A stretch of 64,000 nt of DNA from Botryllus schlosseri (lineage: Eukaryota). Position numbers and translations under genes: made by a program. The number at the start of each line of letters is the position of its first letter. Within the stretch, counting starts at the first letter, position 1. Shown here piece by piece: positions 25,201-51,129 of the stretch. The stretch spans positions 33,420,001 through 33,484,000 of the forward strand of contig CM119372.1 in NCBI GenBank assembly GCA_051294905.1, read 5' to 3'. The notes under the pieces were generated by a model that saw only the letters and a program-made list of their open reading frames with translations, was not told the DNA's origin and ran no database searches.

Positions 25201-26144
25201 TTTGTCATATCGCTAAATTCAGTGTGTAACAATTGTCCGCTTTACTAATGTATTGCTATCGCAGACCAGTAAGGTATCTATTTACTGATTGACCTGTTTT
25301 TATTATTCACGCAATCAAGCATATCAATTTCAATTAACCAGAGAGATATCTACAAACCAACAGCTAAGATGAGTAAACGTTTCATTACTGCATGACTGTG
25401 TTCATAATTACGATAAGTAAATTACGCTTGTATTCACAAAATAGGGGAAATGCTCAGCGTACATCTAAATAGGAATGAGCAATAGTGCTAAGAAATATTT
25501 ATTATGGCTCTTTTGGATTCGAAGAAAGCAGGTATCTTTTCCTGCCTAAGCCACTGCTAGTAAGAAGCATGTATTGAATAAAGTGATTAATAACTTTTCA
25601 TCAGTGATCTCAACCACAATACTTATGAACCTTATACTTGTCCTTCAAAAGTATAGAAACTGGTCACAGAATAGTGACAAACACCTCGCGGACTGACTCT
25701 GGCCCGCGGTTGCCTACCTCCCTACTAAGTGCAATCCAATCTATCAGAATACTAGGAAGACACGAACGGCAAGGTCTGCGGGTACCGCCATTACCGTGCG
25801 CCCGGTCGACTTCCACACCAGACGCAAGCAAGTGATTTTGAAGAGACATCGCACAAAGACATGTTGCATATGAGAGAATTGTTAAATTCGAAACGTTGCT
25901 CATTGTACACGGTTAGTCTACATCAGTGGTTCCCAAAGTGTGCGCCAGCGCCCGCCTGGGGGCGTTCGCGAGCGTGGAGGGGGCGCTGGCCATGAAATGG
26001 GCGATTGGGGGGGGGGGGGCGCTGGCTAGAAAATTGGGCGGCAGGGGGGTGCTGAGAGCAAATGCAGGCGGTATAGGTTTAGAAGTCAACTGCTGCGTAT
26101 ATAGTGTTGAAACGATTGATTAATAAAGAGGCTGGATTCGCAGT

Positions 26145-26860
26145 ACCAGAAACATCCATCGTTACTCAACAATGGGAACTCATGAACTATACGCCCTCTT
26201 TTCCCGTGCATATGAAACACGTCATCAATCATGTTTCCCCATGATCATATAATTCACACTCACCATTTCTTCAGTCACTGAATCCTTTTTCTCTTCTTTA
26301 TTCTCTCGTTTTTTCACACGAGTAATATTAATGCTGACTCAGCATTATTTCTAGTTACGAGGTTTCAGTTTTGTCCGACTTCTCCCATTGTAGCACATAT
26401 TTACAATCTGCCAAAAACAGCTTTACATCTTTAGTATGACTGTGGGTGGTATAGGACCTTCGCATAACACCACTTCTTGTATGTTTGATTGCAGCAGTAC
26501 AAGTCCCTCGTTCCTTATATCTGCTGCCTTCATGCAAACTACCGTATTTCGTTTTTTGCTTTTCTTCGTTATCGTTTTGCTCCAATGAATGAATCTCCTA
26601 TTCATTCGTTCAATGCCTGTAGACATTATCTGTCGTGCATTGTTTTAATCGCCATGTGGTACAATATCTCGTAGCCTTTATATTTACAGTGCGGAGGGGG
26701 CAACCCTTTTGTATGTCCATGGGCAGCCGTCAAACCACAGTTCTAGACTATTACTCTATCGCACCTTTTCATGACGTTCTTGATTTCTTCAATTCTCATT
26801 TGCACCCCCATTTTCTTTTTTATGACGCCGCAAAATTTCTTCCCAGGGATGGTATTCATC
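26145..26860 (-). pseudogene. Possible integrase remnant (Zn-binding region and start of core)
   Basis: Broken frames give WEEILRRH...MRIEEIKNVMKRC, HSHTKDVKLFLADC, and WGNMIDDVFHM...VTMDV. These loosely resemble integrase HHCC and PW..v.iD...vD motifs. Confidence 0.35.
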
Positions 26861-27087
26861 TACTGAGTCATTACAAAGATAATGGCGACAATGAGACTCT
26901 TGAGTTCCGTCTTAACGCTTGGACTGGTCCCTTGTTGTGGTAACTTGGCCAACCATTGGCCAATGTGAATCTCGTGATGAACGGGGTTTTGCTGTTGGTG
27001 GAGAGAGGGCGAGGTTCTTCGTTGTCAGCGGGGATTCCCTACCTATTCAATCTAACCTCTGATCTCGGCGTGTGCCCACGCCTACCG

Positions 27088-29243
27088 TCACACCAACGGA
27101 CTCAGTCGCCGCCGGGGCCTTGTTTCTGGGGAGACGTGCATCCTAAAATCCCCAGACTCCTCGTCGGTCATATCCGGATATATGTCCGGTTGACCGGCAA
27201 CAGCTGCTTTCTGGTTACCTTTTGGGAAAGTAGGTAAGACGGTGGCTGTCGTAATGCTACTATGGGCCGAACAGTTACAATCGTTCGGACAAGTGCATCT
27301 ACGAGAGCTGCCAGGACCAATTTTCTCGTGTTGGTCCTCATTTGCGCCAGCGGGGATTCCACACTCGACGTCTTCAAGAATAGTGCCAGCAGGGATTCCT
27401 GACTCGACACTTGGAGTTTCCCATAGGTTTTGTGTGACGTTAGTTGCGCTTTTCAACTCGTCGTTCGCACCAGTGGTGATTACCATCTCGGTACTTGCGC
27501 CAGCGGCATCGGCCAGCGGCGACGGCCAGCGTGCCGGCTCGACGCTTATTTGATTTGCAGCTTCCATCAACCCATCATCGGTTACAGTGTCGCGAGGACT
27601 GCTTCCGACTTTGGTTCCGTCCCGTTGATCTCATGAGATCCCATCATGTAGCGTTACTAAAGACAACTCTTCAATTGCGTTAGACCAGAGGTCTCAAACA
27701 CGCGGCCCGCGGGCCGCATGCGGCCCCCCAGAGCATTTTGTGCGGCCCGCGACGACATTTTATATTTTTATTAATTTGACAATATATAAGTGTCACATAT
27801 ATCTTTTCAGGTTATAAAGTGAAAATTCCCTCTTAAATTGTGCCGAAAGCCTGAAACTATTCATCAAACTTCACTATCACATCAATTGCAAACGCTACCA
27901 TGCAGTGAAAGTTTCACTATTTCGCGACATTTCCAATTCATGATGACAAAACCTGACCGTTAGACGATTCATGACTGAAATTTGTGAGTGGGACTTGGAT
28001 GCGACCTTTCTTAGAATTATTCAGAATCGCACTAACTCGATGGCCAAAGGAGAATGACTCTAGTGGACTCGGAATGCCGTGAATTTGTTTGAACCATGGA
28101 CGGAACAAAATAATCGCGTATCAGGAGAATAGTAATAGATCAGAAGGTCGCAGCTTGGTATTTCACTTATAGATAACTAACCTACGGTTAGTTATCTATA
28201 TTTCACTACCTAAACACGTAGTTATGGCAACCATTGGCAATCTGTTAGTTATATCTTTGGTCGCTAAACCATGTTATTAAGGCCACTTAAAGGTACCGAG
28301 TACCGTATTGGTACTCTCCAACGATGTAACATCAATGGGTCGTTCGGCGTTCCAGCATTTCAATCACTAGGACACATTCATTAATATATTTACATTATAT
28401 TTATATTTTTTCAGCTCCTATATTTGAAGATACTTGACCATAAGATTAATAGCCTACTTATCGGAAGTATGCCCGAATCCTGGACTGGAATTACAATGCT
28501 CAACTTAAAAATGTTTTGATAACAGATCAGTCTCGATTATCAATCTGTTAAATTCAAGCTGCAAAATTATAATCCGATAGCTTTTATGATGGCATCATAC
28601 ATTTGTCCGACCATATGGTGCCTGTATCTTATAATTAATATATATCAAGTACAACAACAATTCTATTCAAATAGTTGTAAATGTGATGATTCTTTTCGTG
28701 CCAGGCTTAAATTGATACAAGAGTAAATCACATTTTGACGACATGTGTTTACTGTCAGTCTGCTGGATCGGCTCACTTTCAATAGGACAATTCATTCCCG
28801 CCAAATAAGTCCTACTTGGAAAGACATAGAATTCCCCTATAAATGCTGCGGCCCGCGGCGTCATCAAAACTGGAAAACTGGCTCGCGAGCACATTTGAGT
28901 TTGAGACCTCTGCGTTAGACGGTGTTTTCAACCCAATTACTATGCTTGGTAATTGCTGTCCTTGATCAATCCATTTTAACCCTATGATATTAAGTGGGAC
29001 TCCTAATCCGGTCACAAATGGAACTGACAGACCATCAAAATTAAGCTCTAACAAGCAATCAACTCGGGACGAGCCACCTATTGCTGCTAATTCCATGTCT
29101 ATTGGTTGACGTTCCTCCCAGCTTTGTGGGTATTTAGTAATAACGACCTTTTTCATTATCAAATTGGGGATGCTTCCCGTGTCAGCTAGGAATTTCGAAC
29201 CCGTTGTTGTATCAATCAAATACAACAATTGGCCTCCGAACAA
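27088..29243 (-). pseudogene. Retroviral-type aspartic protease plus low-complexity linker, interrupted by a MITE
   Basis: FLADTGS active site and NIIGLKWI C-terminal motif. Removing MITE 27686-28912 and one TSD copy restores the frame ...GLKTPSNAIEELSLVTLHDGIS*DQRDG...LMEAANQ, joining ORF 27088-27570 with a single TGA. Confidence 0.75.
27686..28912. mobile_element. hAT (Buster/Charlie-type) MITE inserted in the retroelement pro region
   Basis: TIR CAGAGGTCTCAAAC / GTTTGAGACCTCTG; TSD CGTTAGAC at 27678-27685 and 28913-28920; colinear paralog at 41597-42792. Confidence 0.95.
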
Positions 29244-29370
29244 TTCCGTAAATCGGGCTGTAATGGGTCATCCGGCGTATCAAGAAATGTAAATAGGGGC
29301 AGGGAATCATTATATACAGTTTTTGCGTGTTGGGGTAGTATATTAACTGGGAGCTGATTTACCGGATCAA

Positions 29371-31225
29371 TCAGCACCCGCAAGCGATTTTAGAGAGTCG
29401 AATACCTTGATTCAGTTCATCATCCGTCCAATATGAAGCATCATATCGACGATGATCGGGGTATTGAGGTTCCGCCCAAGCCACTTGGCTATTACCTAGG
29501 GATGAGTGTGCAGGCGGTAAAGATGGCTTTGTGTCACGCACTTCCTTCGTTTCCTGGTTCCTAGGGCGCGTCTCTTGTTCATCCAGAAACTCGGAGTTCC
29601 AAACAAATTGTAGTTCTTCCGCAACGTCCCGCCAGGTTTTGTCTTTTTCCTAGCCTCGTAACATCAGTCTGAGCGCTTCAGGTAGTCGTTGTCGCAGATT
29701 TCGAAACAGACGCAATCCATCAGGATTATTTTTAATTCTACTGTCCATGTTTATTTCCAGTTGCTTCAAGGCGCTATTGAGCAACGGTAGTGGCTCATCC
29801 TCCCAGCGATAATCTCTGCGGAAATCTCCAATGATTTTTTCGTCATTTACCAAACCCTGGGGATTTGATAAGGAAAGAGATCGCATCACCGATTCCCATT
29901 CTGCTTCTCCCGAATTGGTATTAAAAAAATTTCCAAGTTGGGTAGCCTGCTTGTGCCAGCCAGCCGCCCTCAATTTCTTCTGCAAAGCATTAGCCAAAAT
30001 CACATCAGCATCCGTATTCCCGGGACCGTGGCGTATTCGTCTCATCGAATTTTCCATCCACTTTAGCAATGGCATGTCCCCAGGGTCCATCATAAGCTGA
30101 AGCATTTCTTTTTCTGATTGCATTTTAACAGGTACGTTGAGCATTGGAACTGTTACACCGGGATATTGGTGCAACTGTTGTTGCCCTGGCCTTCGGCTAC
30201 GATCGTTAAGAGTAGAGGTAAAACGAGGCATATTTGGATAAGTCGGGTTGTTAGGTCGGCCCCCATCCTTATCTTCATCCGACGAATTTTCGGAACTTTG
30301 GAGAGACTTCCCAACCTCCTTTATTTCTCGAGCCAATATTCGCATTCCAGTATCGTAATCGTCATCTCCAGCGTCTTCCGCATCTTCCCTTGTATCACCT
30401 TGTTCTCGAAAGGTCACCTGTCGGGATTCGCCATCCGCACTCCCCGCTCGTTTTCGAGAATCCTTCTCCTCGTTACGACGTTTCTGCCATCCTCGATACC
30501 CCATATACTTATCGAAGGGACTCTTTTTTGGTTTTGACGCAACAGGGGACTCCTTCCCCCCCAAGTCTGATGGAGCTTGGCATTTCAGGCGGGTTGGTAG
30601 GTTTTTGTTTGGCACGCGCACCACCTTCCACATGGAAACATGGAGTCGTTCCCCTGCAGGAATCTGACAGCGAGGTCGGCTCGGAACGTGGTAGCTTAGG
30701 ATAGACGGCCGTTACTGTATGACAATCCAGACCCTTGCGAACCGTCATTGTTGGTCCTTATTTTACGTCTCCACTTGGCCGCTCAGCAGCAAGAACGTAC
30801 GCCGGAGGATCATATTCTGGTGCATTTGGAAGTACCGTCAAAACGGGAGGTTGGGTTCTATCTCGCGTAACCTGTGCATGCGACTTTCCGAGCTCAAACT
30901 CTGACGTAAGAATGTCATTCAGCACATCGGCGGAGACCTTCCCGCTAACTTTTGTTGTGGCATCACAAACAGCTTTGAGGACCGCTTGAGCTTTTCGAAC
31001 CTCTTTCTTTGCCTTCTCTAAACCTTTCATAGTTTTCGGAAGAGCTGTTTTTACTTCCTTTAAAACTTCAGCCTGTTCCGCCACATCTTTAGCAAGTTGT
31101 CTTTCTTGTCGCCGTGCATCTTCATGGCGTTTTTGTGTCGCTTTAAGCAAGGTAATCCCTTGTTTGAGTTCTTCTGTTGCCTCTGACGACTTTTTCCTTT
31201 TCAATGCTTTCAATATTCTTCGCAT
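29371..31225 (-). pseudogene. gag: gag-like gene (~617 aa reconstructed)
   Basis: ORFs 30758-31225 and 30509-30748 are in the same frame across one TAA. Removing one G from the G7 run (30556-30562) joins ORF 29650-30633, which reads through a TAG (29650-29652) to a TGA at 29371. Basic, coiled-coil N-terminus; PPAY and YPKL motifs; helical capsid-like C-terminal half; located between PBS and protease. Confidence 0.7.
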
Positions 31226-31233
31226 ATCACTTC

Positions 31234-31503
31234 CTATTGACTGGAGGAAGTACTGTTGACAGAAGGTAGTTGATCAGGTGAAGATACGTTGAAATAGAAT
31301 GTATATCCTTGCGTCGTATCCGTGGGTTGGACGTAAGCAGTGGATTCGCTGCTATTGGATCCCAAAAATACGTTCAACAGATTAGAAAACGTTCCAGGCG
31401 ATACATGCAGATATATTGCTGCCAATGTAATCAGGAGAGATACAGACAATGAAAGCAAGGATACGACAAGTACAAGTTTTACGATGGTCGTCTTGGAAAG
31501 CAT
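31234..31503 (-). CDS. Intact 89-aa single-pass membrane protein upstream of gag (putative type II glycoprotein)
   Basis: ATG about 30 nt after the PBS. Hydrophobic stretch LVLVVSLLSLSVSLLITLAAIYL, then a Ser/Thr-rich tail with N-glycosylation sequons NSS, NVS and NST. The stop lies 8 nt before the gag ATG. Confidence 0.6.
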   Translation of the reverse strand: MLSKTTIVKLVLVVSLLSLSVSLLITLAAIYLHVSPGTFSNLLNVFLGSNSSESTAYVQPTDTTQGYTFYFNVSSPDQLPSVNSTSSSQ

Positions 31504-31532
31504 CGATTGGTCAACATCTGAACACCGGAAGT

Positions 31533-31551
31533 ATCCCCGTACTGGCCACCA
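31533..31551 (-). promoter_or_regulatory. Primer-binding site complementary to tRNA-Ile(AAU)
   Basis: Plus-strand ATCCCCGTACTGGCCACCA matches the 3' 19 nt (including CCA) of animal tRNA-Ile(AAU) as I recall it. The minus strand reads ...AAAACA-AAAT-TGGTGGCCAGTACGGGGAT, i.e. an LTR end followed by the PBS. Confidence 0.9.
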
Positions 31552-31939
31552 ATTTTGTTTTTATAGTGCAGCTCCGATAACGATTGTTATGCGAGTAGTC
31601 CACACTTGTTCGGGTTACTTCCTAGTAAAGCGTTGCCTTTCGTTTGCTTTAGTATCCTGACGACGTTTGTAAATGGTGATTGGAGCAACAACAGTTGTAG
31701 GATTGTTTCTTCTCAAGTTGACAATTACCCTGGGGTCCAGAATTTTAATCTACCTTTATCTACTGATAATCTAGAACCTTCATACAACCAAATACTCCAA
31801 TCAGTTAATCGCGCAGACGGAAATGAGGTAACTCTATGCAAAGCTTGGTTAAATTGGCATACACATCATTCATCAATTATAACACAAGGCATGGTTTAAC
31901 CTATACATCATCATACACGATTCATAAACATTTTCAATA

Positions 31940-32050
31940 CTCCAAGGTTTGTTTACGCATATAATTGATGCGACGGCCTTTCCTGCCGAAAAGCAGCTCC
32001 AAGGTTGGTTTACACATAGAATTCATGTGACGGCCGTTCCTGCCGAAAAG
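31940..32050. repeat. ~58-bp imperfect tandem duplication in the putative LTR
   Basis: CTCCAAGGTT.GTTTAC.CATA.AATT.ATG.GACGGCC.TTCCTGCCGAAAAG occurs twice. Confidence 0.85.
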
Positions 32051-32321
32051 TTTATACATGACATATCGTTTCACACTCCATTACAATAGTCATGTAAGAA
32101 CTAATGTTTTGAATTCAATCTGTTTTTTCACCGGGTTCTTTTAGTATTGGTGTCCTTAAGCTTTTTATTCATTCGTATGTTGACTAGCAATCGTCAAAGG
32201 CAAACAGCATGTTTTCGATGCCAAATATTTACATAACTCGGATGATTACGAGGGTCTTGATAATAAGTTTAACAATTATAACTTCCTATGTACGTGCTCA
32301 TTAAATGCAACACGTAATGTT

Positions 32322-32433
32322 ATGTTATTTTATGTCCTATTGAATAACAGTCCGCACAGGCAACCCGTCCTGATTTTGGCGTTATTATGTCCTATTAAAT
32401 AACAGTCCGCACAGGCAACCCATCCTGATTTTG
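32322..32433. repeat. ~57-bp tandem duplication (U3 enhancer-like) in the putative LTR
   Basis: TTATGTCCTATT.AATAACAGTCCGCACAGGCAACCC.TCCTGATTTTG occurs twice. Confidence 0.9.
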
Positions 32434-35340
32434 TGATCATGAAACCTCAGTAAAATGTAGGGGTCCTACCGCTGAGTGTGGGTAGTTATAACACATAACC
32501 AAGGCCTAATCAATGCCTGAATCCGTAGTACTTGCTAATAAATTACTACAATAACAACCAATTATTCACATATTAATGATCATCAACTCATACACATATC
32601 TAAGACATAAAATTTTAGCGCCATTTTGAAGCAACCTGATGGTAATGATCAAAGATACAGTAATACAATGCTTGATCACAATAAGGAACATTGGAGTCAC
32701 TATGCAATAATATAACATGAGAATACCATTGTTGTGTTATGACTATTGGTGTCCCGTCGTCATGCAGCAGATTGATTTATGCCATCGATCCTCCAACGCA
32801 TCCTTTCCGATCTCCATCATCAAATGTTCAGAACACATTTCGTAATTGTACGTTAGAGTGCTAAGTCTTGTGCATCTATTTTCGGACCTGATTTCTTTGA
32901 CTCCCATGATCATGAAACAACTTTTCTGCGCATCTCTTCTTGATTCCGCAGCCGTCATGATCGTTTCTTTCTCCGTTACCTTTAACGCGATTTCTTGCGG
33001 GCTTGGTCTGGCACGTCCCATTCTTAGGTTCAATGTTGATTGCGCCAGATCACTTTATTAAGCCCTTGAGAGGAGCAATCTTTTCGGGATGTCGTTTGGC
33101 ACTTTTAGAGTTGTACTCCCAAGTCGTATATTATCGCCAGCAGAGTGTCCCAGTATTGCGTGGGTAAAAGTATGGCATTTCTTTCTCGGCATTTTCCAGA
33201 CGGTATCACGTGGTCTTGTCATATAAGTTTTGAATACACTCAATGCTCACAGGGATGACATTTAAACAGACACATATCAGACCATGGCGTCATTTGTTAT
33301 CATAACGACGTTATAATACAATACAGTAATTTGCATACATATGCAGATCACGGTGCGATAACTGCACCTGCCAGGCATATCCATTTCGTGAAACGAATGT
33401 GCAGACAAGGCGGGTCTAATTCTAATGTCCCACTCAACCATCGACACATCAGTTTCGAAAAACGAATGTGTGGAGAGGATCCATGGATTATTTTCCCAAG
33501 GTCTTTATGATAGCAGTACGGGCCTGAGGTATTCCTCTTTGATTCTAGTCCTAGTTCTAGTCCTAGTTCTAATTCTAGCCCTAATCATTTTGGAATATCT
33601 GGCGGTCTTCTCCAAAGTCTAGCACCAAGGTACCGGGGCCATATCCATTGTGGATAAGCAACTTTTGGTTGCCATCTTGTTCGTCGTAACGCTTTTAATA
33701 TTTTTTCCATGAATTCTCCAAGAGTAACGTTTCACACCACAACAAATCTGGCTTAGCGTTATACGCATCATATTGTTCCGTCTATACATCAATACTATCA
33801 TATATTTGTACAAGTTTTTCTTCAGTTGTGTCCATTCTCGTTCATTACGGTTGCTATCGCATAACAATAACTTTCCTGTAGTCGGCCGTCCTTTTGACTT
33901 TGCGGCGATCACTTTCTCCAGCGGCATACCTTATTTTTATAGGGCCTTGTATGGCCATGTCGTCTCTCCTGAATGATGTCATCTATAAGCGTCGTCGAAA
34001 CTTGCGACGTAGTCACTCCTGTCATCCGTTGGATTTGCGCCTTCTGTTCTTCCGTAAGATTTTTAAATCTTGCCATCCCGTAAAGTTTGTTATGACGTTC
34101 TGCCGACCAACTAGCAAATATCAACTGATAGTCTTTCCTATATTCCAAAGACTCGTGGTACAGAAGGTGACCCATTTCGTTCAGAATAAGTCATCATATG
34201 CCATGACATGCGACTGATTTCGTACCACATATTGTCTAGCATTTTCACGGTGTATTGTCCGGTACGTTCGAGTCTTTGCAGATTTCATTCAGGATTTACT
34301 TCTCCATTATGCTCAAACCATATATCCAGTTTGTTGTATAGCGTTACTATTGCATTCTCATTGTAACTCAAGTTTTCATTCATAATACTTTTCCTTATTC
34401 ATAATACCCCAGCATTAAGCGTGACATCATCCCACCATGAATCATGGTAAAGTAATCACTTCATCAGTGGACTAACAGGAGCTTTTTGTTGACGAAACTA
34501 TACATAGTCTAAATGAGCTTTTCCCAATTTTCAATGGTAACAATAATCCCCCCCCCCCACAAAGGAATATCAATGAACACGTACAACTAGAACTGCCCCC
34601 AGGAATTGTTCCATCATTTCGAGCGTCTTAGAGGGATCAATTAGTTGAGGCAGCTCCCGTCACACAGATTATTTAAGTACCATGCCCATAAAACATTTTT
34701 AAATTTCTCCGTAAATATGGCAATGTTGGGAACAAGTCACTACCTTTGAGTCACGAGTCAAGTCATGATCCTATTCTAGTAGCCCGTCGCTTTAACACCT
34801 GAGCAATGCTTTAAGCAACTCCCCGTTTTGTTTTACAATTTTATTTTCAAACATAAAAACGCACTTGCTAGTTATCTGGTTCCTGTTAACCTTTCTGTTG
34901 GATGCTAGTAAGTCTTCACTTGTTTACAATATAACTTCGTCTTCTGCACCTCAGCTCCATGTGAGATAAACTAAATTTTTAGGCCTCGTTCTCCAAGTTA
35001 TATTCAGTTCTGAGCGGAAGGACGTTGACTTTCATGCATTCCCACGCGTCAATCAATAGGCAATATATTGCTTCCTTAATTATAGACTGACGCACATCCC
35101 GACATTCATCAAGCAAATTTTGCCGCTATCACGCATCATATGGCGTGATTAAACCGTCAATTAAAATCAAATTCCACCGTTTTGCTGTAATTTATACTTT
35201 TATGGCTTCCTAATTTCGTTACAACATTGCAATTCCCACTGCCTTTTGCAGCATCATTTTGCAACAGTTCCGCAATCTGCTTCCAAGTCTGCATATTGTC
35301 GCATTTCACGACCCGTACTTATTTTTATTACATAAACAGC

Positions 35341-35444
35341 ACTTGGTTTTGTTACGCAATCCGTAACTCCAGCAGTTACATAAATTCTTTTGTACTTGGT
35401 TTTGTTACGCAATCCGTAACTCCAGCAGTTACATAAATTCTTTT
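35341..35444. repeat. ~53-bp tandem duplication
   Basis: ACTTGGTTTTGTTACGCAATCCGTAACTCCAGCAGTTACATAAATTCTTTT occurs twice. Confidence 0.9.
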
Positions 35445-37305
35445 TTCTCCGATTATGCAATTCGCAATTTTACTAGTTATGTAATTCTTGTTTTTACTTA
35501 TTACGCAATTCACATCTTTGCTTGTTATGTAAATTTTCATTACGGTCAGAACAAATATTCTGATGGCACTTTACAATGCAGTCATCAGGTTTAGGGCTCG
35601 GACCACCTTTCCCCCAAAAAATCCGCAAATTTAGATTACTGCCGTGCCGTGCCAGCTACCATATCCCTTGGCAATTCTATGTAGCCTTCCCGACTCGAAA
35701 TTTTGAATTGTGCGGGACGTTGATTAATCAAAGAGCATAGCAGAAATGGTGAGTGGCAACGCCGATATCACAACGCAGCTTTTCAAATACACATTGTCTC
35801 CCGGGCCTACGGCGCGAAATGAACTGACGCGAACGTGGTATACGGTAACGTAAGCTGTAATCTACGGTCATTTTGTGCGAATTAAATTTATTTTCCAAAA
35901 CAAGTGCTAATGGAGTTTCAGAAAAAGTTAAAAAGCACGGCATTAGACGCTTCCCATTGTGCAACTCCATTTAGTATTTTCAACACGATAGGACATATGA
36001 TCAATATAATTCAGTGCGCCACAGGCGTAACCAGGGCCGAAATCAAAACTTCTCCATTTTCAAAACCCGATGTTATACTTATAACAAGCACTGTTAATTC
36101 CCCAGCATCCGCAACTACTAAAACCTGCTACGTTCGAAATGTGGTTTTTCTTGTATATAGTGCAATTATCATCATATGTGTATGATTTTGACTCACAAGA
36201 TCGCCCTTTCACACATTATTAGTCAATCCAAGGTCTGCAAGTTAGCGGAAAACACACCTGTTTGAGGCAAGTTGTCCGCAGAACCTGTCATTAGGTTTAG
36301 TAACTTCTCAAAGGGTCGTAACGAGGTTAGAACTTGGGTCTCTTCATCCACGTTATTATCGCCAATGAAAGATGGCGAGTAACAAACTGGTGGGCTCGAC
36401 AGCAGTAATCACTCACGGAATGCTAGGTGATTGAACCTTTCCTTGCTACGTAACATTTAGGTACAACATCGTTCACAAAGCCATTTCTGTCGAGCACCAT
36501 AATACAATACCAATTACCAAGGCAACATAATTCAGTAATTGTGTTGTTATTTATCTGATCCAATATTGGAAGATAAATTTATATTTAGACTTAAATAGAT
36601 TTAGATGGAAATTACATTTTGCCACGGCCGCAAAACTTCAACGTGACAGAATTCACTCTGCCGCGACGCAATTGCACGCCTACACTGTCTCTGTGTCCCA
36701 TAATTTTGACAAGTTATGCCAAGTACAACAACCTTTTTATTCAGTTATTTCAGAATGTGCATTTTTCTCGTGCCAGGCGTAAATGTTGCTATAGTAGGCC
36801 TACATAGTACACTCATAATGTGTGTGGAATCTGCGCAGTCCAAATTCAAAATAGGGTCGACACCACGCAGATTATTCTAGGTATTGTTATTTCAAAACCA
36901 TGTACTTTTTTTGCCTAAACTGCAACTGTTGAGAGTTCGTATTCTACCATTTTGAGCTGTTACATTGCTTTACTCTTTTATGGCCTTTCAACAGTATAAC
37001 TATTCATAACCGCTACCATCGCACAAGCGATTTCCGGCAATTTTTGTGGAAACCGGTACCATGCAAACCTATAAGTTTCACTTTAATTCAATTATTGATC
37101 TTACGCGCAGTCGTGACTGGTGCAATGTACATACTGTTTTGTTACTGACATATGTCAGAATTACCACTCTCATTTGTGTACTCGAATGCACGATGTAGCG
37201 CGCTGTGTAATGCAATTTACTTATACTAAACTAAAGCCGCGAAACAAGCGGTATTCACTTCGTGTCGTTAGACAGCAGTAGTTATAAAAACCAAATTGAC
37301 AGAAG

Positions 37306-37887
37306 TGTTGGAAAATCAACTCACCCGACACAAAAACCTACCCACTGGTTCCGAAATATCTAATGCAAATGGTGATGCGGTATGCACGGATAACCACCTG
37401 CATTCATGCAGCTTACAACACCGACCATGATAACAATTTAGAATTGCTGTTAATACTTTTGGGCCACAACTATTCCCTCGCTAGCCAATAGTTAGAATTC
37501 ACGAGTTACTGATAAAGCAGTAAGTTACCGAATGTTTGGGGGACTAGTATGGTAGACATTGGTGGGGTTACTTCTTAGTCACTGGGACAATTAAATTAAC
37601 GACCATTACTTCAGCGGGCCTTTCAACATTTTCCAATTTATTAGCATATTCGTCAAGCTAAGTCCACTACAACAAATTTATTTTCCTTGAGTATTCAGAG
37701 CTAGTGTTTTCCGTAACTTTGTGGCTTGTTACATCAAAAGTGCACATTCAGACTGTGTGCGTTCACCTTTGACCAAAAGTGATCGTCAGACTGTGGTGTG
37801 AACACGTCTTCATGGATATGCCATTCCAATAATGTGCATATTGCGTAGCTTTGTACTGAATGATTAATATGTTGCGATGCACCAACA
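37306..37887 (-). mobile_element. 3' LTR (582 bp) of a second LTR retroelement, preceded by a PPT
   Basis: Perfect 6-bp inverted termini TGTTGG...CCAACA. Purine tract GAAGGCGGGGGAGAA (37888-37902) abuts the TG. Internal minus-strand AATAAA motifs. Confidence 0.65.
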
Positions 37888-38759
37888 TTCTCCCCCGCCT
37901 TCAATAAATACAATTATTAATTCATTAATTCAATTATTACGTATTTTTTATTGACGATTTTAATTTGTCCTGCAAATTAATGGCTGTTATATACGTTTAC
38001 TGGTTATCAATACGAGTAATACCCCCAATATATTTTCTAGTCCTGTTTTTGCAGTACTTCATATAGGTGACATATGTCAATGATGTAATGATAGACATGC
38101 TTACTACGAAAATTATGGAATAACTATTTAGCGGGTTCTACATTCTACGTAGCCCGGTCAGCACCGGGGTATTAAGTTGGGATGATTCAATCTTCCAGAA
38201 CTGGGCGGTCCAGACGATGGAACCGCGGCCGGAACCATGATCGCTACAATATCACCGCTTGTGGCTCGAATATTGACGTTTGGTATATTTTGTTCAGGTG
38301 TCTCATCGGAAATACATGTGGTGTTTATTAGTGTGACATTTGTGTAATGCCCCTGACGGGACCAAGCGCAGTACATTGTATGTCCTTCTTTGATGGCCTG
38401 CGTAGATCTGCGTAAGCAAACAGCACAACATGTGTGGAATATTAAATCCCTGCCGCCATGTGCGGGGCTAACGTCGTTTTTCTCGACAACTCATAACTAT
38501 TGATTCTCTCCTTTTTAATCCCGTACAATTTATATGGCAGGGTGGTCTTTTTCACCTGTTCCACACTAGACCTAGTGAATCTACCACCCATATTTCAAGG
38601 TCCAGGGGAAACACTAACATACCTACCACACACCCATCACTTGATGCTGCATACTTTTGCCGACAACACCTCTGGGCATGTAATTCACTAGTACCCAACA
38701 ATGTTATTCCTGCTTATCAATGGATCAATTTAGCAGTCGGCATCATCCCCGAAAAGCGT

Positions 38760-41434: not shown

Positions 41435-43775
41435 TAGGGGTGGTGTGAACCTCTAAAAGGTTCAGGTTCGTGTGAACGCGAACCTTTTTGAAAGGTTCTG
41501 TGTGAACACGAACGTGAACCTCATGACGTCACGGGACGTCATATTGCTAATTCCAATCTATCCTTCAATGAAATGATAGCCTATATTAATGTACACCAGA
41601 GGTCTCAAACACGCGGCCCGCGGGCCGCATGCGGCCCGCCAGAGTATTTTGAGCGGCCCGCGACGACATTTTAGATTTTTATTAATTTGACAAAATATAA
41701 ATTTCACATATGTTTTTTTCAGGTTATAAAGTGAAAAATCCCTCTTAAATTGCTCCGAAAACCTTAAATCAAACTTTATTATCACATCAATTGCAAACGC
41801 TATCATGCAGTGGAACATTCACTATTTCGCCGCATTTCCAATTCATGATGATAAAATCGGACCCTTAGACGATTCTAGACTGAAATTTGTGAGTTGGAAT
41901 GGGACGCGACCTTCCTTAGAATTACTCAGACTCGGGCTAACTCGATGACAAAATGAAAATGACTCGAGTGGACTTGAAGTGACTCGGAATGCCGTGAATT
42001 TGTTAGAACCATGGACGCAACAAACTAATCCCGTATCAGGGGAATAGTAATAGATCAGAAGGTCGCAGCTTGGTATTTCGCTAACTAAGCAAGTATAGTT
42101 ATGACAACCATTGGCAATCTGTTAGTTACATCGCTAAACCATGTTATTACAGCCACTTAAAGGTACCGAGTACCGTAGTGGAACGCTCCAACGATGTAAC
42201 AGCAATGGGCCGTTCGGCGTTCCGACATTTCAATCACTAGGACAAATTCATTAATATATTTATATTATATTTATATTTTTTCTGCTCCTATATTTGAAGA
42301 TTTCGCTATGTGATTAATAGCCTACTGATCAGAAGTATACCCGAATCATGGATTGGAATTACAATGCTCAACTTAAAAATGTTTTGATGTCAGATCAGTC
42401 TTTATTATCAGTCTGTTAGATTCAAAATATTCATAGTAGCTGAAAATTATAACCTGATAGCTTTTATGATGGCATCACACATTTGTCCGCCCATATGGTG
42501 TCTATATCTTATACTTAATATATATCAAGTACAACAACAATTCTATTCAAATAGTTATAAATGTGATGATTCTTTTCGTGCCAGGCCTAAATTGATACAA
42601 ACGTAAATCACATTTTGACGATGTGTGTTTACTATGAGTCTGCTGGATCGGCTCACTTTCAATAGGAAAAGTCATTCCCCCCAAATAAGGCCGACTTGGA
42701 AAGACATAGAATATCCATATAAATGCTGCGGCCCGCGGCGTCGTCAAAACTGGAGAAATGGCCCGCAAGAACATTTGAGTTTGAGACCTCTGATGTACAC
42801 GATACCTAGCGACGACTCGGGCAACATTACGTCACAATGCTGAAATACATATTGACGTTTTAAACGTCGCCAAATGTATCAACTGGGGCAATCAAATGAT
42901 ATAATAATCCCATAAAATCAATATCTTCCGTCGCTTTGCCAACAATTTTGACGAGGACTTACCAGGGAATATAAGGAAACGAAGGGACGTAGTATATTTT
43001 TGTCCTTGATGTTCTTGCGGCATATACACCGACTCATGATATACATACACACGATCTGCGTATATGCATACCATGAGTAGATATGCAAGATGCAGATATA
43101 GCCTTGTAGCAGTGTTGGGATGACTCGAGTTATGACTTGACTCAAGTCAGACTCGAGTCACCTTTTTCGTATGACAGATCGGAAAATGTATTCGGCGTCT
43201 GAGTACATTGATATTGAGCAGAGTGTGAAACGGGTTTCTATACTTGCTACCGATAGTAGGCCTACCCCAGTTACAAGTGTGTAGTCACAGTAGCCAACAC
43301 CTCAATCGCACCGATTTGGTTTTAATGATCCAGTAAACATATGAAGTCAATATTGACCCCAAACGTCTGCTAGATTGATTAGTTGAATAAACATCATTCG
43401 CTGACTACGTTGCTTATTTCGCTCGTGATATTTTGTGATTGTGGGTCAAGCTCGCAGCAGAAAGTCAATAGATATATTTACAAACGGAAAGTTGGATATT
43501 TCGAGGAAACTTTTGCAACAAAGCAAGTAAAACTTTTGAGATTGTCAAGGTACATGCTCGTTTAGTGTTGATTTTTTATGCCTATTGCGCCATGCATAGA
43601 GTGGCCTGCAGTTGAAATGCAATAAATTTGAACCAACGATGAAGTGAAAATTGTAATATATGAAAAAGGTTCACAGTGCAGAACCTACCAAGGTTCTGTT
43701 GTGAACGCGAACCTCTAAATTTCCGAGGTTCACACACAGAACGCGAACTTGAACCTCACGTTCACACCATCCCTA
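41435..43775. mobile_element. hAT-type non-autonomous element hosting nested insertions
   Basis: TIR TAGGGGTGGTGTGAAC / GTTCACACCATCCCTA; TSD GTAGCGGC at 41427-41434 and 43776-43783. Confidence 0.9.
41597..42792. mobile_element. hAT MITE, paralog of 27686-28912
   Basis: Same TIRs and internal sequence; TSD ATGTACAC at 41589-41596 and 42793-42800. Confidence 0.95.
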
Positions 43776-44752: not shown

Positions 44753-46781
44753 CAGGGCTGTGGAGTCGGAGTCGGAGTCGGTGGAGTCGGAGTCGGAGTC
44801 GGGGTGATTTTCGCTTGATGGGGTCGGAGTCGGAGTCGGAGTCGTGAAAACTATAATAGCTGGAGTCGGAGTCGGAGTCGGAGTCGGTGGGAAAATATTG
44901 ACTGGAGTCGGAGTCGGAGTTTGTGATAATGACTATGACTTCGACTCCGACTCCGACTCCAACTTCTCTATCATGAAAACATATGCTTTCAAAGAATTTT
45001 CAATATAATTTTTATGTACCACCAATCACTGTTATTGATAACCATACAGATCAGGGGCGGCCAGCCCGTGGCACGCAGGCCAAATTTGGCACACGAGAAG
45101 GTTAGGTGTGGCCTGCGAGGTAATTTTCGAAATTATTTATGACATCAGGTACAATTGCAAAACCAACCAAAATTTGATTAGCATGACCGCGAAATTTGAT
45201 GATGACTAAAACAACAGTTCTGACGCATTGACGTATCCAGGGGTCAGCGACATTTATCCCAGATCTTCTTATATGACCATGAAGTAGAATAGGCTATTTC
45301 ATAGCAGATTTATTTGACTTGAAATTTTTCTCGGTACTTCGCATGATTCATTGTCACTAGATTTCTTGCATTCAGTATTTGAGCCCCCTTCTGAAAATTA
45401 TAAATACATATTATTCACAGAATTGAGTCTAACTATATTCGCAATTAGGAGATACGGCTTCGCTTGTGCACTCGCAGCGAGATCGTCGACACAACATTTG
45501 TACAAAATGATAGAGGCATGTTCACTGATACCGTCGATTTTGCTATGTCTAAACGTCGAATAATCCTGTCCTTGCCAAATGACCCCAGTGGTATACAGAT
45601 GCGACCCCCAATGTATGTTAGCGACATATTTATCGATGTAGCTATAGCCTAATTCAGTCGTTATCTTGCAAAAAAATTTCGCGCTTCGCGCGACCATGCC
45701 CTGCTGCGCACAGCACAGTTGCATGACATATTGTTATCAATTTTAGAGCGTATTATATAAGTCTTGTTTGCAATGTTACCTAATTCGGTTCGCTCCTATA
45801 TCGACGACTAAAAAAGGTTTTCCACATTCCAGTTGCCCGTGCAATGGTTCGTAAATCTCAGGTGTCTCTTTCACCCTGATATAGATAAAATTATACATTA
45901 CTTGCAAATTACGACTCAGTTGCAGAGGGGAAGAAAATCGCAAGATGCGTTTTGCGTTGATGCAATTTTTAGAATTATACCATGATACTGTGACAGAGAA
46001 AATGCATCGGCTGGTTTTGTAAAATTGTAAAAATGATGTAAATATGACCAAAGGATGCTTCCCACATGACAAAATTAAAAATATTTGTAGTGTAGCTTAG
46101 CTGTTTGGGTCGAACAAATGATTAAGAAAGACTGCAAGTCCCAATCCTTGAATACTTGATTAAGTACATGTAGACTAGACATAGGCTATGGTCTTTGACT
46201 ACTTAACTAAATTCCATTTACGACCAATGTCTATTATTAGTAGTAGTAAGAGTGTTTGTGCTTGTAATCAGGATAGTGTGCAATGACGAAATTAGTAAGT
46301 TCAATTTCTTTATTAGTTGCTGAGTTATACACAAGAGCTACACTTGGATTTTTTATCTACATTTTTGTTATACAGGATTGGATATCTGCCATATTTGAAT
46401 GATTCATACATTTCAGGATATTAGAGAGTCCATGTTATAAAAACTTGAATAAGGAAGGATATTTAGCAAATCTTTATTTCATGTTAATTGCATAGTGGAT
46501 AATTCGAGCTGTGCCACAATGAAACAATTTAGCATGCCACAGTTAATCATATGTTTGCATGTGTTTAATGGTTGTATGATAGTCATTCAACCGACAATGT
46601 GGCATATAATTTTCGAAGTAAATTGGTAATAATGCTGGAGTCGGAGTCGGAGTCGGAGTCGGAGTCGGTACATTTAAAGACTCGGGAGTCGGAGTCGGAG
46701 TCGGAGTCGGTATATTGAAAATGTGTGGAGTCGGAGTCGGAGCCGGAGTCGGTGGTAAAATTTACCGACTCCACAGCCCTG
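44753..46781. mobile_element. hAT-type element with (GGAGTC)n subterminal arrays
   Basis: TIR CAGGGCTGTGGAGTCGG / CCGACTCCACAGCCCTG; TSD GTTGTATA at 44745-44752 and 46782-46789. Confidence 0.93.
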
Positions 46782-47730
46782 GTTGTATAGTTGTGTATGT
46801 TAAATTCTGGAAGCTGGAATTGCGACTGGTACCGGATGTGGGTAAGAACTAGGTGTACGGTACATAGTTGAGCGAGTAATATGCTATTTTGAAGGAATAC
46901 CCTGTAGTTTATGACTCCGAGAGCTGTTTGACTTGCTGCAAACAGTTCGAAAATTACGTCTATTTCGGTGGCTGTAATAATAATAATACAAGCATTTTCA
47001 GCTATTTATAACATTATAATGTAGCATGTTATCAGGGACAATCACCGTACCGGAATGCATACTATATGGGTTGCTCAATGGCTTGGTCGTCTGCAGTTAT
47101 CCACGTAAGTTTCTAAAATGATGCTTATATGAGTCATTTTCGTATCATATTATGATAACATACCGTAACATGTAGGAGATTATATGACACGGCCTACTGG
47201 GTATAATCTTAGCGCTGGCGACCAGCTGTACCAACTACTTTTTCACTGATTCCTAAAATACTAATTAAAATCTCGTCCGGGCACTGAAACCCCCTAAAAT
47301 CTCTCACAAAGTTGGAAATTTTCATTTTACTGAACAATAGGGGCGCCCGAGCTGAATGCCGATTAACATTTGGTACGCACGGTACCGATTGTGACGCCAT
47401 GCCATTGAGCGTCTCGGCGAAGTCAAGCCGTGCTCCCGGTGAGGCCGTGACCCTCTGAGTATGTTGCTAGAGATTGATGTGATGCCAATATACGTCCTAT
47501 TCGAGTAGTTTTAGTATTTCGCGTCGTAGCGCATTTACAAATTTGAGAATACAAATGATAGCACTGAAGCCAACGCATATTGTAGAATTTACTATCAACA
47601 TCAACGTGTACTTATTTGAAGCTAGCTGGCCAATTTACAAAACAATTATATAGTTCCATTCGGGTCTTGATGGTTCCTAAATTTTATTTGAATTGGCAGT
47701 ATTGGAACGTAGTTTTATAGGTGTTGCAAC

Positions 47731-47904: not shown

Positions 47905-50230
47905 GTTGCAGCTACTTTGAGTTGGTTGCATCGCATCAATCGCTGTAAACGCGAATACGTCCTAAAATGCAAGTAGCCTACTTTCATATTTTTTGTCGCG
48001 CATATAGAAATTTGGACAAATAGAAATGAGAACACACCAGTTATTCTCTGCGATTAACCGACTGATTAACAAAACGGCTCATTCTCATAATTCATTCAGC
48101 TAAGTCCTAAACGGCATCCCAACCAAACCAAAAATGATATCGCAAATGTATGATTTCAAACTGCCGAACATCCCAATTATAGGTACAATTTATCTATCTA
48201 TGATGCACTATAAACACTGTTTCGTTAATTAGCCTGTTATGCGCAGAGAACACCTAGTGTGTTATCGCACTGGTGTCTCATTCACATTAGAACTATGTTA
48301 TAATATTGTCAGTTCCGATGAAATTTATGACCCACAAAGAGCCGAATGGATTCATCTGCTACGTGCAAGGAAGTACGCATCTATATCGAATTCCGCAGTG
48401 ATATGCGTAGGTAGGCTGCATTTGTATAATCAAAATTCGTGGATGCGCGATGATGCGAAATGCAAAAACTACTCGACGTATTCGGGTCACATTGAATTAT
48501 ATGTCGCAAAATACTCTGACAATCATGGGGAACACAGCTCGACTTTGCCGAGACGCTTGTTGGCGTCACAGTCGAAAAGAGACTTTATTCGACTATTGTC
48601 TACGGGCGATACAATTGTTAGAAACAATGTAGATTCGGACATTCAGGGTTATTTTCGGGGGGTTCCAGTGGCCGGACCAAATTTTAATTTATATTTTCGA
48701 AATCAATGTGACAGTAGCTTTCGATTGAGACCGGTTGAACAAAATTTTGAGCTCGAGTTGCCAGCGCTAAGATTACCACCTACTGCTTTCGATTTCAGAA
48801 ACAGCAGCACTGATTTTTTTCGGAAGAGCAAGCGGATGCGTAAGAGCTGGCAAAATTGGTAAACTTCTTGACCGGAAAGTGAATTAAACTGTTCTACAAA
48901 AAGATTGTACCGCAGGTATGAGGCTGAATATTTCTAATACTTCTGAGACTTATGGCTAGCAAAACATGATATACAATTGCAGTTTAAAGTTCATCCAACG
49001 CAGAAGCAACTTCCCACTTGGCAGACCGCACTGTCACAATATCACACTGATACGATCGCAAAAGTGGATTTACATACTTTCGTAGTATTCCCTCGGTATG
49101 TCTAGAATTTTTAACCGGACTGACTTTGATAATTATAATGATATCAAAAACTCAATCTCAAACCAAGTATCAATGTTTGATTCGTGGATGTGAAGCAATA
49201 ACTGCAACTGCTGTACCCAGAATCCCTCAATAGGGTTCTTTAGAGTAATGAGGTATCTTCAGTAACTTGAGACTATATTTTCATGCTTTGCGGGGATAGT
49301 TATGTGCACTAGATTCATTTTAATATTCTGAAAACAATGTGGGGGTCGAATATCCGCATTTTAGTTTCATGACCAAAAGTATTTAAGAACCCCTGTAGAT
49401 ACGATACCGCCATATTGTATATTTTGACTCGCGTCAAGTCAGGTTAATCGATTTTCGAAGGTGACTCGAGTCAAATCAGTCGATTTTTGTATGTGACTCG
49501 AGTTGAGTCAAAATTCAAGTCAAGGTGCCTTTTCGTCGTATGAGGCATGATTATGTCATTGCATTTTGCTAGCTGTCTGAAACAGATTGAGCGGTAATTG
49601 ACTCTGAGCCAATGAACGAATACAGAGTTAAATATACGCGCAAGAAGACGCTGTATCGCTCACATATACGCAGAACTGTTAAACTGCGTAAGTAATTGCA
49701 CAGCCTCAGTTTATAGAACTTCTAGAACTGGTAACTTTACCAGCCAAAATAGAGAATAGAGAAATAAATTGATAAGATGCAATACATTACCCTTTTACAA
49801 ACAGATATGATACACCATGCGTTAGTACAACGACGAAGCCGTTTCTGCTAGTGCGGAATAGTGTTGTTGCACACAGGCGAATAGCTTATTTTGAAAAAAA
49901 AACAATAATTTGAAACTGACATCAATTTCAGCATTCAACCGTCAGCCACGTGTTGCACATCTATCCGTAGATTAGTTATCAATACCTATATCTATAGCTA
50001 ATGTTCGGTCAACTGGAAAGTTACACAGCACATTGCATTGAAATAGCAGTGACGTAACGTTAGCAGTCTTCTCACAACTTTTCTGCAATCCTAGTTAAAA
50101 CTCCAGACTCAAAGCAAGAGGCTTGGATGCATGATTATGCATTTTTGTTTTACTTCTAATCCAATTCCTTGTGTTCCTGTAAAGGCTACTGCAGGCCTAT
50201 TGTGTGAAACAAGCCAAGCTTGCTGTACGG

Positions 50231-51129
50231 CAGGGGTGGGCAACATACGGCCCGCGGGCCGGATCCGGCCCGCGAAGGGATTTTGTCCGGCCCGCGGACA
50301 GTTTTCCGTTTTACATGATAATGTGGCCCGCGGCCCCAGTCTGCCGAGATTTGCCACTACTTGCTTACAACGTCAAATTTTAGTGACTGCATAGTGCATG
50401 TTATTATATACGTATATGCGCAGCGTGCTAGAGTGGAGCTTACGCGTAATTTCGTCGAAGCGAGAAGACTTGTATTATCGGCATTTGCGATGTACTCAAC
50501 CCTAATGTCGTTTGAGGTAATCATGGTGTTTGTCGACTACAATGGTCAATTACACCAGGCTGATATTTCTTATTTTTCATTCTGTAACCGCCGACTTGTA
50601 GCACGGCACACTTCTAGGCTTTTGTAAGACGAAAGCACTGCTTATACCAAGGGGTCGCCAACTCAAAACGGGTCGCGGGCCACTTTTCAAATTTCGTAGA
50701 GGTCGCGGACCGCATGAATTCATTATCGAGATTTCTCAGGCCACACAGTTGAACAACGATGCTATCTCGTCACCTACTCAACCCTAACGAATATATGTGT
50801 TGGTAAATTAGGGGTACAGGGGTTATCGAACTCCTTGAAATCTTAATTGAGGATTGCACCGTGTGTTGATTGATCAGATAGAAGCAGACATGGCGGCGCC
50901 TGTATGACAATGCTATTCTCAAATCCACATTGTCTTCGTCACTATCGGCGAGAAATGGCTTTGAAGTGACATTACTGTCGTTAAAATGTATTCATTAAAT
51001 GCGATTTATTCCTTGTATATGTGGAATGTGGATAAATGGGCGGATATTGTATCGATTCAGCAATCCGGCCCGCCAAGTACTTAATTTTCCGATATCCGGC
51101 CCGCCGACTCGAGAAGTTGCCCGCCCCTG
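50231..51129. mobile_element. hAT (Buster/Charlie-type) MITE, paralog of 21192-22221
   Basis: TIR CAGGGGTGGGCAAC / GTTGCCCGCCCCTG; TSD CTGTACGG at 50223-50230 and 51130-51137. Confidence 0.93.

Follow-up and report, generated by a model that had tools for sequence, protein, structure and literature searches.

What kind of mobile element carries retrovirus-like genes on the minus strand of a 64,000-nucleotide stretch of the Botryllus schlosseri genome (C2:33420001-33484000, here called the window; host genome 495.5 Mb in 219 contigs, GC ~40%), and by what means does it sit in the chromosome? An initial annotation had placed the element at 26100..34558, bounded it with a long terminal repeat (LTR) and proposed that it may belong to an undescribed lineage of potentially transmissible LTR retroelements. 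The retrovirus-like character and the unusual gene set are borne out, no description of such a lineage was found, and relatives of the element carry envelope-like genes; however, the element does not belong to the LTR class. In the window lies a decayed and non-autonomous copy, shortened by deletion, of a family of giant mobile elements which, very probably, join a reverse-transcribing, retrovirus-like module with a DDE transposase of the Merlin/IS1595 type. All positions of the window copy are on the minus strand unless stated otherwise.

Ends of the Element and Absence of LTRs

A search of the genome with the gag DNA of the window returned 49 matches, with 40 of the 90 candidates scored, and six further copies of the same 12.4-kb form were fetched and compared with the window copy. 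The element in the window occupies 26175-38695 (12,521 bp, minus strand) and is longer than had been annotated. The six other copies have 11.3-13.0 kb in common among them, and the window copy is colinear with them over 38695-26175 except for an inserted miniature inverted-repeat transposable element (MITE) and a variable stretch at 34721-32050. Imperfect inverted repeats of ~22 bp (GGTACTAGTGAAATAAGTACCC / GGGCATATAGTTCACTAGTTCC, 17 of 22 positions complementary) form the ends of all seven copies, each of which is flanked by a perfect 8-bp duplication that differs from copy to copy. A copy of 40.1 kb (C4:22817343-22857404) likewise has these ends and is flanked by a perfect 8-bp duplication (CAGCATTT), bringing the total to eight of the eight copies checked. 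The copy on C1 lies in a satellite, and taking out the element with one copy of its duplication gives a predicted 32-nt empty site which occurs exactly four times in neighbouring monomers, a match which confirms the ends of that copy. The surrounding array (C1:19054585-19060424 and C1:19041197-19042163) shows offsets of ~0.5, 1.0 and 1.6 kb, with units that are 75-99% identical. Genome-wide, the 5' end motif of the family was found in 49 places as opposed to none in the reversed control, and 40 matches were scored for each end when the 150-nt terminal stretches of the 12.4-kb form were used as queries.

Self-comparison detected no terminal direct repeats in the seven copies of the 12.4-kb form or in a 34-kb locus of a full-length relative. 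For the ~3-kb LTR proposed at 34546-31563, neither the window nor the six other copies nor the 34-kb locus holds a second copy, and the part of it from ~33656 to 31460 is internal upstream sequence common to other subfamilies. Full-length copies with two LTRs had been anticipated; the copies found instead carry inverted ends with 8-bp duplications and no LTRs. Internal end-like sequences were absent from the parts of the elements examined. Merlin transposons, as defined in PMC8101967, have ends starting with GG, duplications of 8-9 bp and an IS1595 DDE domain, with ascidians among their hosts. Inverted ends that start with GG, 8-bp duplications and a DDE_Tnp_IS1595 domain with conserved DDE residues were all found here. 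The element sits in the chromosome as a Merlin-type unit, without LTRs or a retroviral integrase.

Full-Length Relatives and Their Gene Order

Relatives of full length (~33-52 kb) encode a membrane open reading frame (ORF), Gag, Pol, one or two DDE transposases of the IS1595/Merlin type and two envelope-like glycoproteins. The anatomy of group A was taken from a single 34-kb locus (L040, L027, L039 and L041), in which an ORF-poor upstream region of more than 11.5 kb is followed by a spliced-leader copy, a primer site, the membrane ORF (111 amino acids), gag (956 amino acids), pol (1165 amino acids), the DDE gene, env1, env2 and the 3' end. The DDE frame (349 amino acids) comes after one stop codon past Pol and in Pol's reading frame, and lies 6.3 kb past the gag start in all six group A copies. 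In the 869-amino acid env1 product a hydrophobic stretch comes after an RRKR site, and the protein also has heptad-like helices and a C-terminal anchor, while env2 encodes a paralogous glycoprotein of 1047 amino acids, with the 3' end (TATAGTGCACTAGTTCC) ~500 nt further on. An unrelated multi-copy retroelement with gypsy-type protease, reverse transcriptase (RT) and integrase-like frames adjoins the group A 3' end (L041:946-2389 and beyond).

Group B comprises at least 14 giant units of 33-52 kb, which were outlined by combining the coordinates of end, gag and DDE matches. All have the same order and strand, namely the 5' end, DDE1 (~270 nt inside), DDE2 (~22-25 kb in), gag (~31-33 kb in) and the 3' end (~3.7 kb past gag). 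For C4:22817343-22857404, 10 kb of sequence at the start and 300 nt at the far end were read; the unit begins with the 5' end, DDE1, env1 (859 amino acids) and env2 (1165 amino acids). In group C gag follows the DDE gene at a distance of 17-19 kb, with both genes on one strand, in seven of seven copies. At C5:18373634-18412484, the ends of a minus-strand element stand on either side of a group C copy on the plus strand (gag at C5:18402449-18405358), suggesting that one family member is nested in another.

Group B reads 5' end-DDE-env1-env2-...-gag-pol-3' end and group A gag-pol-DDE-env1-env2-3' end: both follow one cyclic order, gag-pol-DDE-env1-env2-...-gag, which the ends interrupt at different places. 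The 12.4-kb form resembles a group B element which has lost the stretch from the 5' end region to the upstream leader region, together with parts of gag and pol. DDE2 is 41-44% identical to DDE1 and mostly an open frame of 317 amino acids (e.g., C4:22842086-22842991), located ~8.6 kb upstream of gag in group B and ~4.3 kb upstream in one group A copy; the products of two transposase genes in one element may form a heteromer, or one may act as a regulator.

Primer-Binding Site, Spliced Leader and RNA

A 19-nt primer-binding site for tRNA-Ile had been proposed for the window copy, and it indeed complements exactly the 3' terminus, CCA included, of the host tRNA-Ile(AAT), whose gene is called by ARAGORN in L044 and whose 3' end has 10 exact 20-nt matches in the genome and none in the reversed control. 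Among the 20 distinct copies in which the search pattern found a site, 14 have one of three forms: TGGTGGCCAGTACGGGGAT or near variants (six copies, the window copy included), TGGAGGCACCACTGGGAT (five copies, one with the last base changed) and TGGAGCCATCGGCGAGAT (three copies). Each form pairs perfectly, over 18-19 nt, with the CCA-bearing 3' end of a host tRNA of its own (Ile-AAT, Thr-AGT and Thr-CGT, respectively); the Thr(AGT) and Thr(CGT) 3' ends have eight exact genome matches and one, respectively. Such switching of primer tRNA between subfamilies is expected of a working primer-binding site. The site adjoins no LTR.

At 251 nt upstream of the primer site, each of the six elements scanned carries the 25-nt spliced leader of the host, in a single copy; with a 32-nt probe and at most 8 mismatches, it was found in 17 of 19 family loci. 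These 25 nt match the 'Chordata 1' entry in Table 1 of PMC3795323, a chordate spliced leader, exactly or almost exactly. When found in genomic DNA, such a copy is a footprint left by the reverse transcription of a trans-spliced RNA, and taken together the primer site and the leader copy point to a real RNA and reverse-transcription stage. The 20-nt core of the leader is itself widespread, with 509 genome copies (2 in the control) ahead of many different sequences; some of these continue into GTAAGCATC, as expected of leader-RNA genes, and several recurrent contexts look like other repeat families which carry a leader copy.

No RNA runs are listed on record for the stretch. In ~6% of one raw RNA-seq run, at a likeness of at least 85%, depth over gag and pol was 0-3.6, reads which are not assignable to a particular copy. 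A further 2,335 reads match only ~32 nt from window position 31802 (31768-31802), reaching 7-10 nt past the published 3' end of the leader, and then diverge (agreement 0.46-0.74); their loose end reads as the reverse complement of a template-switch oligo. Downstream of the leader motif in 17 family loci, comparison by eye found no match to the consensus of these loose ends. Position 31802 was considered as the transcription start of the element and rejected, and the reads there cannot be credited to the element, because their 25 nt are those of the host leader.

Encoded Proteins

Pfam recognises DDE_Tnp_IS1595 in the group A transposase (E=3.6e-13). In an alignment of two genome copies with five database relatives (59-67% identical), residues D113, D177 and E215 are invariant in all seven sequences, at spacings of 64 and 38 residues, and an N-terminal CxxC...CxxC is kept in all five that cover the site; Pfam made no zinc-finger call there.

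An open gag frame of 622-624 amino acids is present in each of the six copies of the 12.4-kb form outside the window. The database relatives P0002 (928 amino acids, 68% identical) and P0003 (976 amino acids, 59%) have ~300 extra Gag residues which include a CCHC knuckle, and P0002 as a genome query yielded 49 long gag matches, 45 of them stop-free, with open frames mostly of 954-968 amino acids. The knuckle of the full-length Gag scores 20.5 bits for zf-CCHC (cutoff 20.8), and the language-model look-alikes of Gag, which serve as leads only, fall in zf-CCHC, Retrotrans_gag and PNMA clusters. Pairwise ratios of nonsynonymous to synonymous change (dN/dS) in the truncated gag are 0.22-0.32 in the 12 more divergent pairs and 0.74-0.89 in three near-identical pairs, which hold very few differences. 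These ratios indicate purifying selection on the gag of the non-autonomous form, truncated as it is. The membrane ORF ahead of gag is intact, at 88-111 amino acids, in 13 of 20 sources, those matched by a search pattern that missed the other seven, and by this recurrence it is a conserved gene.

Group A Pol contains the protease motif FLADTGS and the domains RVT_1 (4e-16), RT_RNaseH_2 (6e-18) and PTS_2-RNA/Tpt1 (2.1e-5), and Pfam detected no rve integrase domain in the window ORFs or in full-length Pol. For PTS_2-RNA the relative P0004 reaches 42.5 bits and the genome's own Pol 25.1 bits, the cutoff being 26; the Pol tail (L039:2901-3452) matches solved Tpt1 enzymes across the full domain (1.5e-5) and is conserved in relatives from other data sets. 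In an alignment of 11 tails, the RH pair is present in the 10 sequences covering the site (P0125 starts after it) and the Arg before (F/Y)(V/I)H in all 11, while the Arg before GHS/T, one of the essential tetrad as mapped by eye, is missing in all 11. Language-model look-alikes of env1, likewise to be taken as leads, are class I fusion proteins, with CoV_S2 first (0.90, with 192 shared features), then paramyxovirus F and influenza HA.

Relatives of Pol

From the RT to the C-terminus, the closest relatives of Pol are P0004, P0005 and P0028 (39-49% identity), none of which contains rve. An exhaustive search returned 118 proteins at E<=1e-30, and those beyond the family and its fragments are 27-32% identical to Pol. 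Domain scans of 26 of these proteins showed that the non-family ones are of the Ty3/gypsy type, with rve in 12 of 16 clean gene models and the other four truncated. Against solved structures, the RT-RNase H region matched best an 'Enzymatic polyprotein' (8r0s, 1.4e-15), which we take to be the name used for caulimovirus P5, followed by foamy virus (7.3e-11) and Ty3 (8.6e-11), a ranking which is not a phylogeny.

A metagenome scan found two family loci, L047 (4.7 kb, with gag and pol) and L048 (13.9 kb, ~35% identical). The order in L048 is gag (with PPAY and CCHC), pol (protease, RT and RNase H) and an env-like gene of 1338 amino acids; a palindrome of ~100 nt with perfect arms of ~30 nt lies at L048:1713-1816, ~110 nt upstream of gag. 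A scan of virus contigs with Pol gave no pattern match, and one with the DDE alignment gave 68 pattern matches with no relative among them.

The Window Copy and Its Surroundings

From the 5' to the 3' end of the element, the parts of the window copy are as follows.

38696..38703, minus: 8-bp target-site duplication, 5' side (CATTGTTG in element sense; identical to 26167-26174)
38674..38695, minus: 5' terminal inverted repeat, 22 bp, begins GG
34722..38673, minus: ORF-poor 5' region common to the 12.4-kb family (colinear by blastn with the C1 copy, 69-91%)
32050..34721, minus: variable region, comprising most of the supposed LTR and including the G11 tract at 34548-34558
31778..31802, minus: copy of the host 25-nt spliced leader, sense, 1 mismatch
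31533..31551, minus: primer-binding site for tRNA-Ile(AAT), 19 nt, TGGTGGCCAGTACGGGGAT
31234..31503, minus: small signal-anchor membrane ORF, intact, 89 amino acids
29371..31225, minus: gag remnant with coiled coil, PPAY and conserved core, lacking ~300 amino acids including the CCHC knuckle
28920..29416, minus: pol N-terminus with protease remnant LADTGS (29267-28913) and one frameshift
27686..28911, no strand assigned: foreign MITE-like DNA transposon insertion, 1,226 bp, 14-bp inverted ends, interrupting pol
26893..27677, minus: pol linker, ~Pol residues 168-435, by alignment to intact Pol (aligned from 27684)
26432..26893, minus: remnant of the Tpt1/KptA-like C-terminal domain of Pol, by alignment to intact Pol
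26175..26196, minus: 3' terminal inverted repeat, 22 bp, ends CC
26167..26174, minus: 8-bp target-site duplication, 3' side

Relative to a full-length locus, what remains in the window copy is Gag 2-583 and 886-956 together with Pol 2-435 and 1007-1160 (residue numbers); it has lost RT and RNase H (Pol 435-1007), the zinc knuckle, the transposase and both env genes. Pfam recognised none of 12 window ORFs, because the copy has lost the recognisable domains. The frames that remain are gag-like ORFs of 171, 353 and 92 amino acids and an ORF of 151 amino acids with LADTGS.

Much of the initial annotation of these genes was sound. The small membrane ORF ahead of gag is intact and conserved in the family, the DTG protease is present as a remnant, and the genes are broken up as described, by one frameshift in gag (near 30711-30758), one in-frame stop (29650-29652), one frameshift in pol and the 1.2-kb insertion. 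The gag with late-domain motifs retains its PPAY and has had its CCHC knuckle deleted. The stretch read as integrase-like debris aligns with the Pol linker and the Tpt1-like C-terminus of Pol and contains no rve. The G11 tract exists, and its reading as a polypurine tract is unsupported: it lies in the first ~1 kb of the variable region, which has no match in the related loci compared, and there is no 3' LTR. The part of the variable region from ~33656 to 32050 is colinear, at 73-84%, with the group A upstream region.

The MITE-like insertion is flanked by an 8-bp duplication of its own (CGTTAGAC, at 27678-27685 and 28912-28919), and contigs from other copies of the element are without it. A second copy lies at 41578-42742 in the window; the two are 84-94% identical, with CAGAGGTCTCAAAC inverted ends and 8-bp duplications, and fragments related to these ends occur at ~5833-5973 and 50212-50296. 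At 44778-46784 the window also contains arrays of GGAGTC hexamer runs interleaved with spacers of ~20 nt, at a period of 42 nt.

How the Family May Move

A transposon-type unit in the chromosome and a retrovirus-like module within it could be reconciled as follows. The gag-pol-env module would provide an RNA, a particle and a reverse-transcription stage, possibly with spread from cell to cell. Reverse transcription would yield double-stranded, possibly circular DNA, as in pararetroviruses, which is the link we favour; the inverted ends, abutted in such a circle, would be the substrate of the DDE transposase, which would carry out chromosomal integration in place of an integrase. Insertion of circular or end-joined DNA by the transposase at abutted ends is put forward tentatively, as a possibility somewhat short of probable. 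It would explain the circularly permuted gene order between subfamilies and fits the absence of LTRs.

Several observations weigh against this scheme, and some against the gene assignments beneath it. The leader and the primer site lie deep inside the element, and an RNA that began there in an integrated copy would be without the 5' part and the ends. To our knowledge, 40 kb exceeds any known reverse-transcribed genome. No circular or end-to-end junction was present among the 15 listed of 157 read joints, and that the transposase acts on these particular ends is something we infer. None of the 49 listed places with the 5' end motif is near a group A copy, and the 17-24 kb from env2 to DDE2 in group B is outside the sequence read. 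The 13.9-kb contig L048 contains no DDE gene, Tpt1 domain or LTR. With respect to the proteins, the structure model of the Gag core (predicted local distance difference test 43.9) is too poor for a fold search and leaves the capsid fold unconfirmed, the protease has the DTGS motif with Pfam RVP below threshold on an intact relative (E=0.067), and the envelope assignment is drawn solely from language-model look-alikes.

Some of these points would sit more easily with a giant Merlin that moves as DNA only and captured an LTR-less retroelement once, with gag-pol-env as cargo that is either beneficial, through particles or recombining cDNA, or merely young. All eight copies checked are whole-unit insertions of the DNA type, which include 8 kb upstream of the leader and primer site, and no LTR or terminal redundancy was found; the single internal leader copy could come from recombination with cDNA of a trans-spliced mRNA, and no 40-kb RNA genome would have to be supposed, for which there is no precedent. 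Yet the primer site has been re-matched to three host tRNAs, a change that makes little sense if tRNA-primed reverse transcription plays no part in spread, the truncated gag appears to be held by purifying selection, gag frames are intact in 45 of 49 matches, and the cyclic gene order is kept across subfamilies despite the differing positions of the ends. On balance we consider capture by a DNA-only Merlin unlikely.

The two other explanations fare far worse. That the units of 33-52 kb are chance or composite nestings of Merlin, retroelement and envelope-bearing sequences gains something from the insertions within insertions that were seen (the MITE in the window, other repeats in the C12 locus and the overlapping pair on C5) and from the limited reading of a 40-kb copy, which covered 10 kb and a further 300 nt. 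Against this, order, strand and spacing are reproduced across copies on many chromosomes (at least 14 of group B, six of group A and seven of group C), a single perfect 8-bp duplication flanks the 40-kb copy on the outside, and the parts examined hold no internal end-like sequences, so that nesting is very improbable. An ordinary Ty3/gypsy-type LTR retrotransposon or endogenous retrovirus whose LTRs had been missed would account for the primer site, gag, the DTG protease and an RT-RNase H of the Ty3/gypsy-retrovirus-caulimovirus type. It is nevertheless the least credible reading, and we give it hardly any weight: terminal direct repeats are absent from seven copies and the 34-kb locus, inverted ends with 8-bp duplications occur in eight of eight copies with an empty site confirming the ends, and rve is missing from Pol and from its three closest relatives.

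Comparison with Known Systems

The GG...CC inverted ends, the 8-bp duplications, the DDE_Tnp_IS1595 domain with its D-D-E triad and the ascidian host are shared with Merlin as presented in PMC8101967. Described Merlins are small and single-gene, whereas the elements here are 12-52 kb long with gag, pol, two env-like genes and often a second transposase; and while Merlins are, according to the same source, without the IS1595 zinc finger, the transposase here has an N-terminal CxxC...CxxC.

With Ty3/gypsy elements (Metaviridae), retroviruses and Caulimoviridae, all of the Ortervirales, the family shares the tRNA primer site, PPxY and a putative CCHC knuckle in Gag, the order protease-RT-RNase H and envelope-like genes, and with caulimoviruses also the lack of an integrase. 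In contrast to these groups it has no LTRs and no rve, its ends are inverted, its duplications are of 8 bp rather than 4-6 bp, Pol carries a Tpt1-like tail, a membrane ORF stands ahead of gag, and identity of Pol to the nearest Ty3/gypsy-type proteins is 27-32%. The DIRS and Ngaro retroelements use a tyrosine recombinase in place of an integrase, have unusual termini, are thought to pass through circular DNA, make no target duplication and have no DDE transposase. In the present family the integrase would likewise be replaced, by a DDE transposase and with 8-bp duplications; general Pfam scans of the tested ORFs, which were not a search aimed at tyrosine recombinases, found no such enzyme. More generally, the gag-pol retroelements known to us use an integrase at LTR ends, a tyrosine recombinase (DIRS and relatives) or, in pararetroviruses, no active integration.

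An analogue in design is Teratorn of teleost fish, a herpesvirus fused to a piggyBac transposon, 41-182 kb long and with subtypes of rearranged order, as described in PMC6431247. Both are giant and hold virus-like genes inside a cut-and-paste DDE transposon, but the viral partner here is a reverse-transcribing gag-pol-env module instead of a DNA herpesvirus, and the transposase is of the Merlin instead of the piggyBac type. It is conceivable, though we would not yet call it probable, that the family represents a new class of enveloped reverse-transcribing elements in a marine chordate, with a Merlin-type DDE transposase and inverted ends in place of integrase and LTRs, a leader-capped, tRNA-primed RNA, circular DNA and insertion by transposase, that is, a retroviral counterpart of Teratorn and a new type of retroelement at the level of an order. 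Our literature search, which lay outside Repbase and subscription journals, found no description of an element combining gag-pol-env with a Merlin/IS1595 transposase or of a Tpt1 domain fused to Pol, and the word Merlin is absent from the accessible part of the 2019 review of giant eukaryotic transposons (PMC6431247). The lineage is apparently undescribed, with a prior description possible.

If the proposed reading is true, this abundant and apparently active family would extend the known ways in which a provirus can form by one in which the integration module of a retrovirus proves exchangeable for an unrelated transposase, and would offer a natural system on how reverse transcription without LTRs yields integration-competent DNA. 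The cargo of Merlin would widen from a single gene to 40-50 kb, and the Tpt1-like domain fused to Pol and the internal leader copy would be further openings for experiment.

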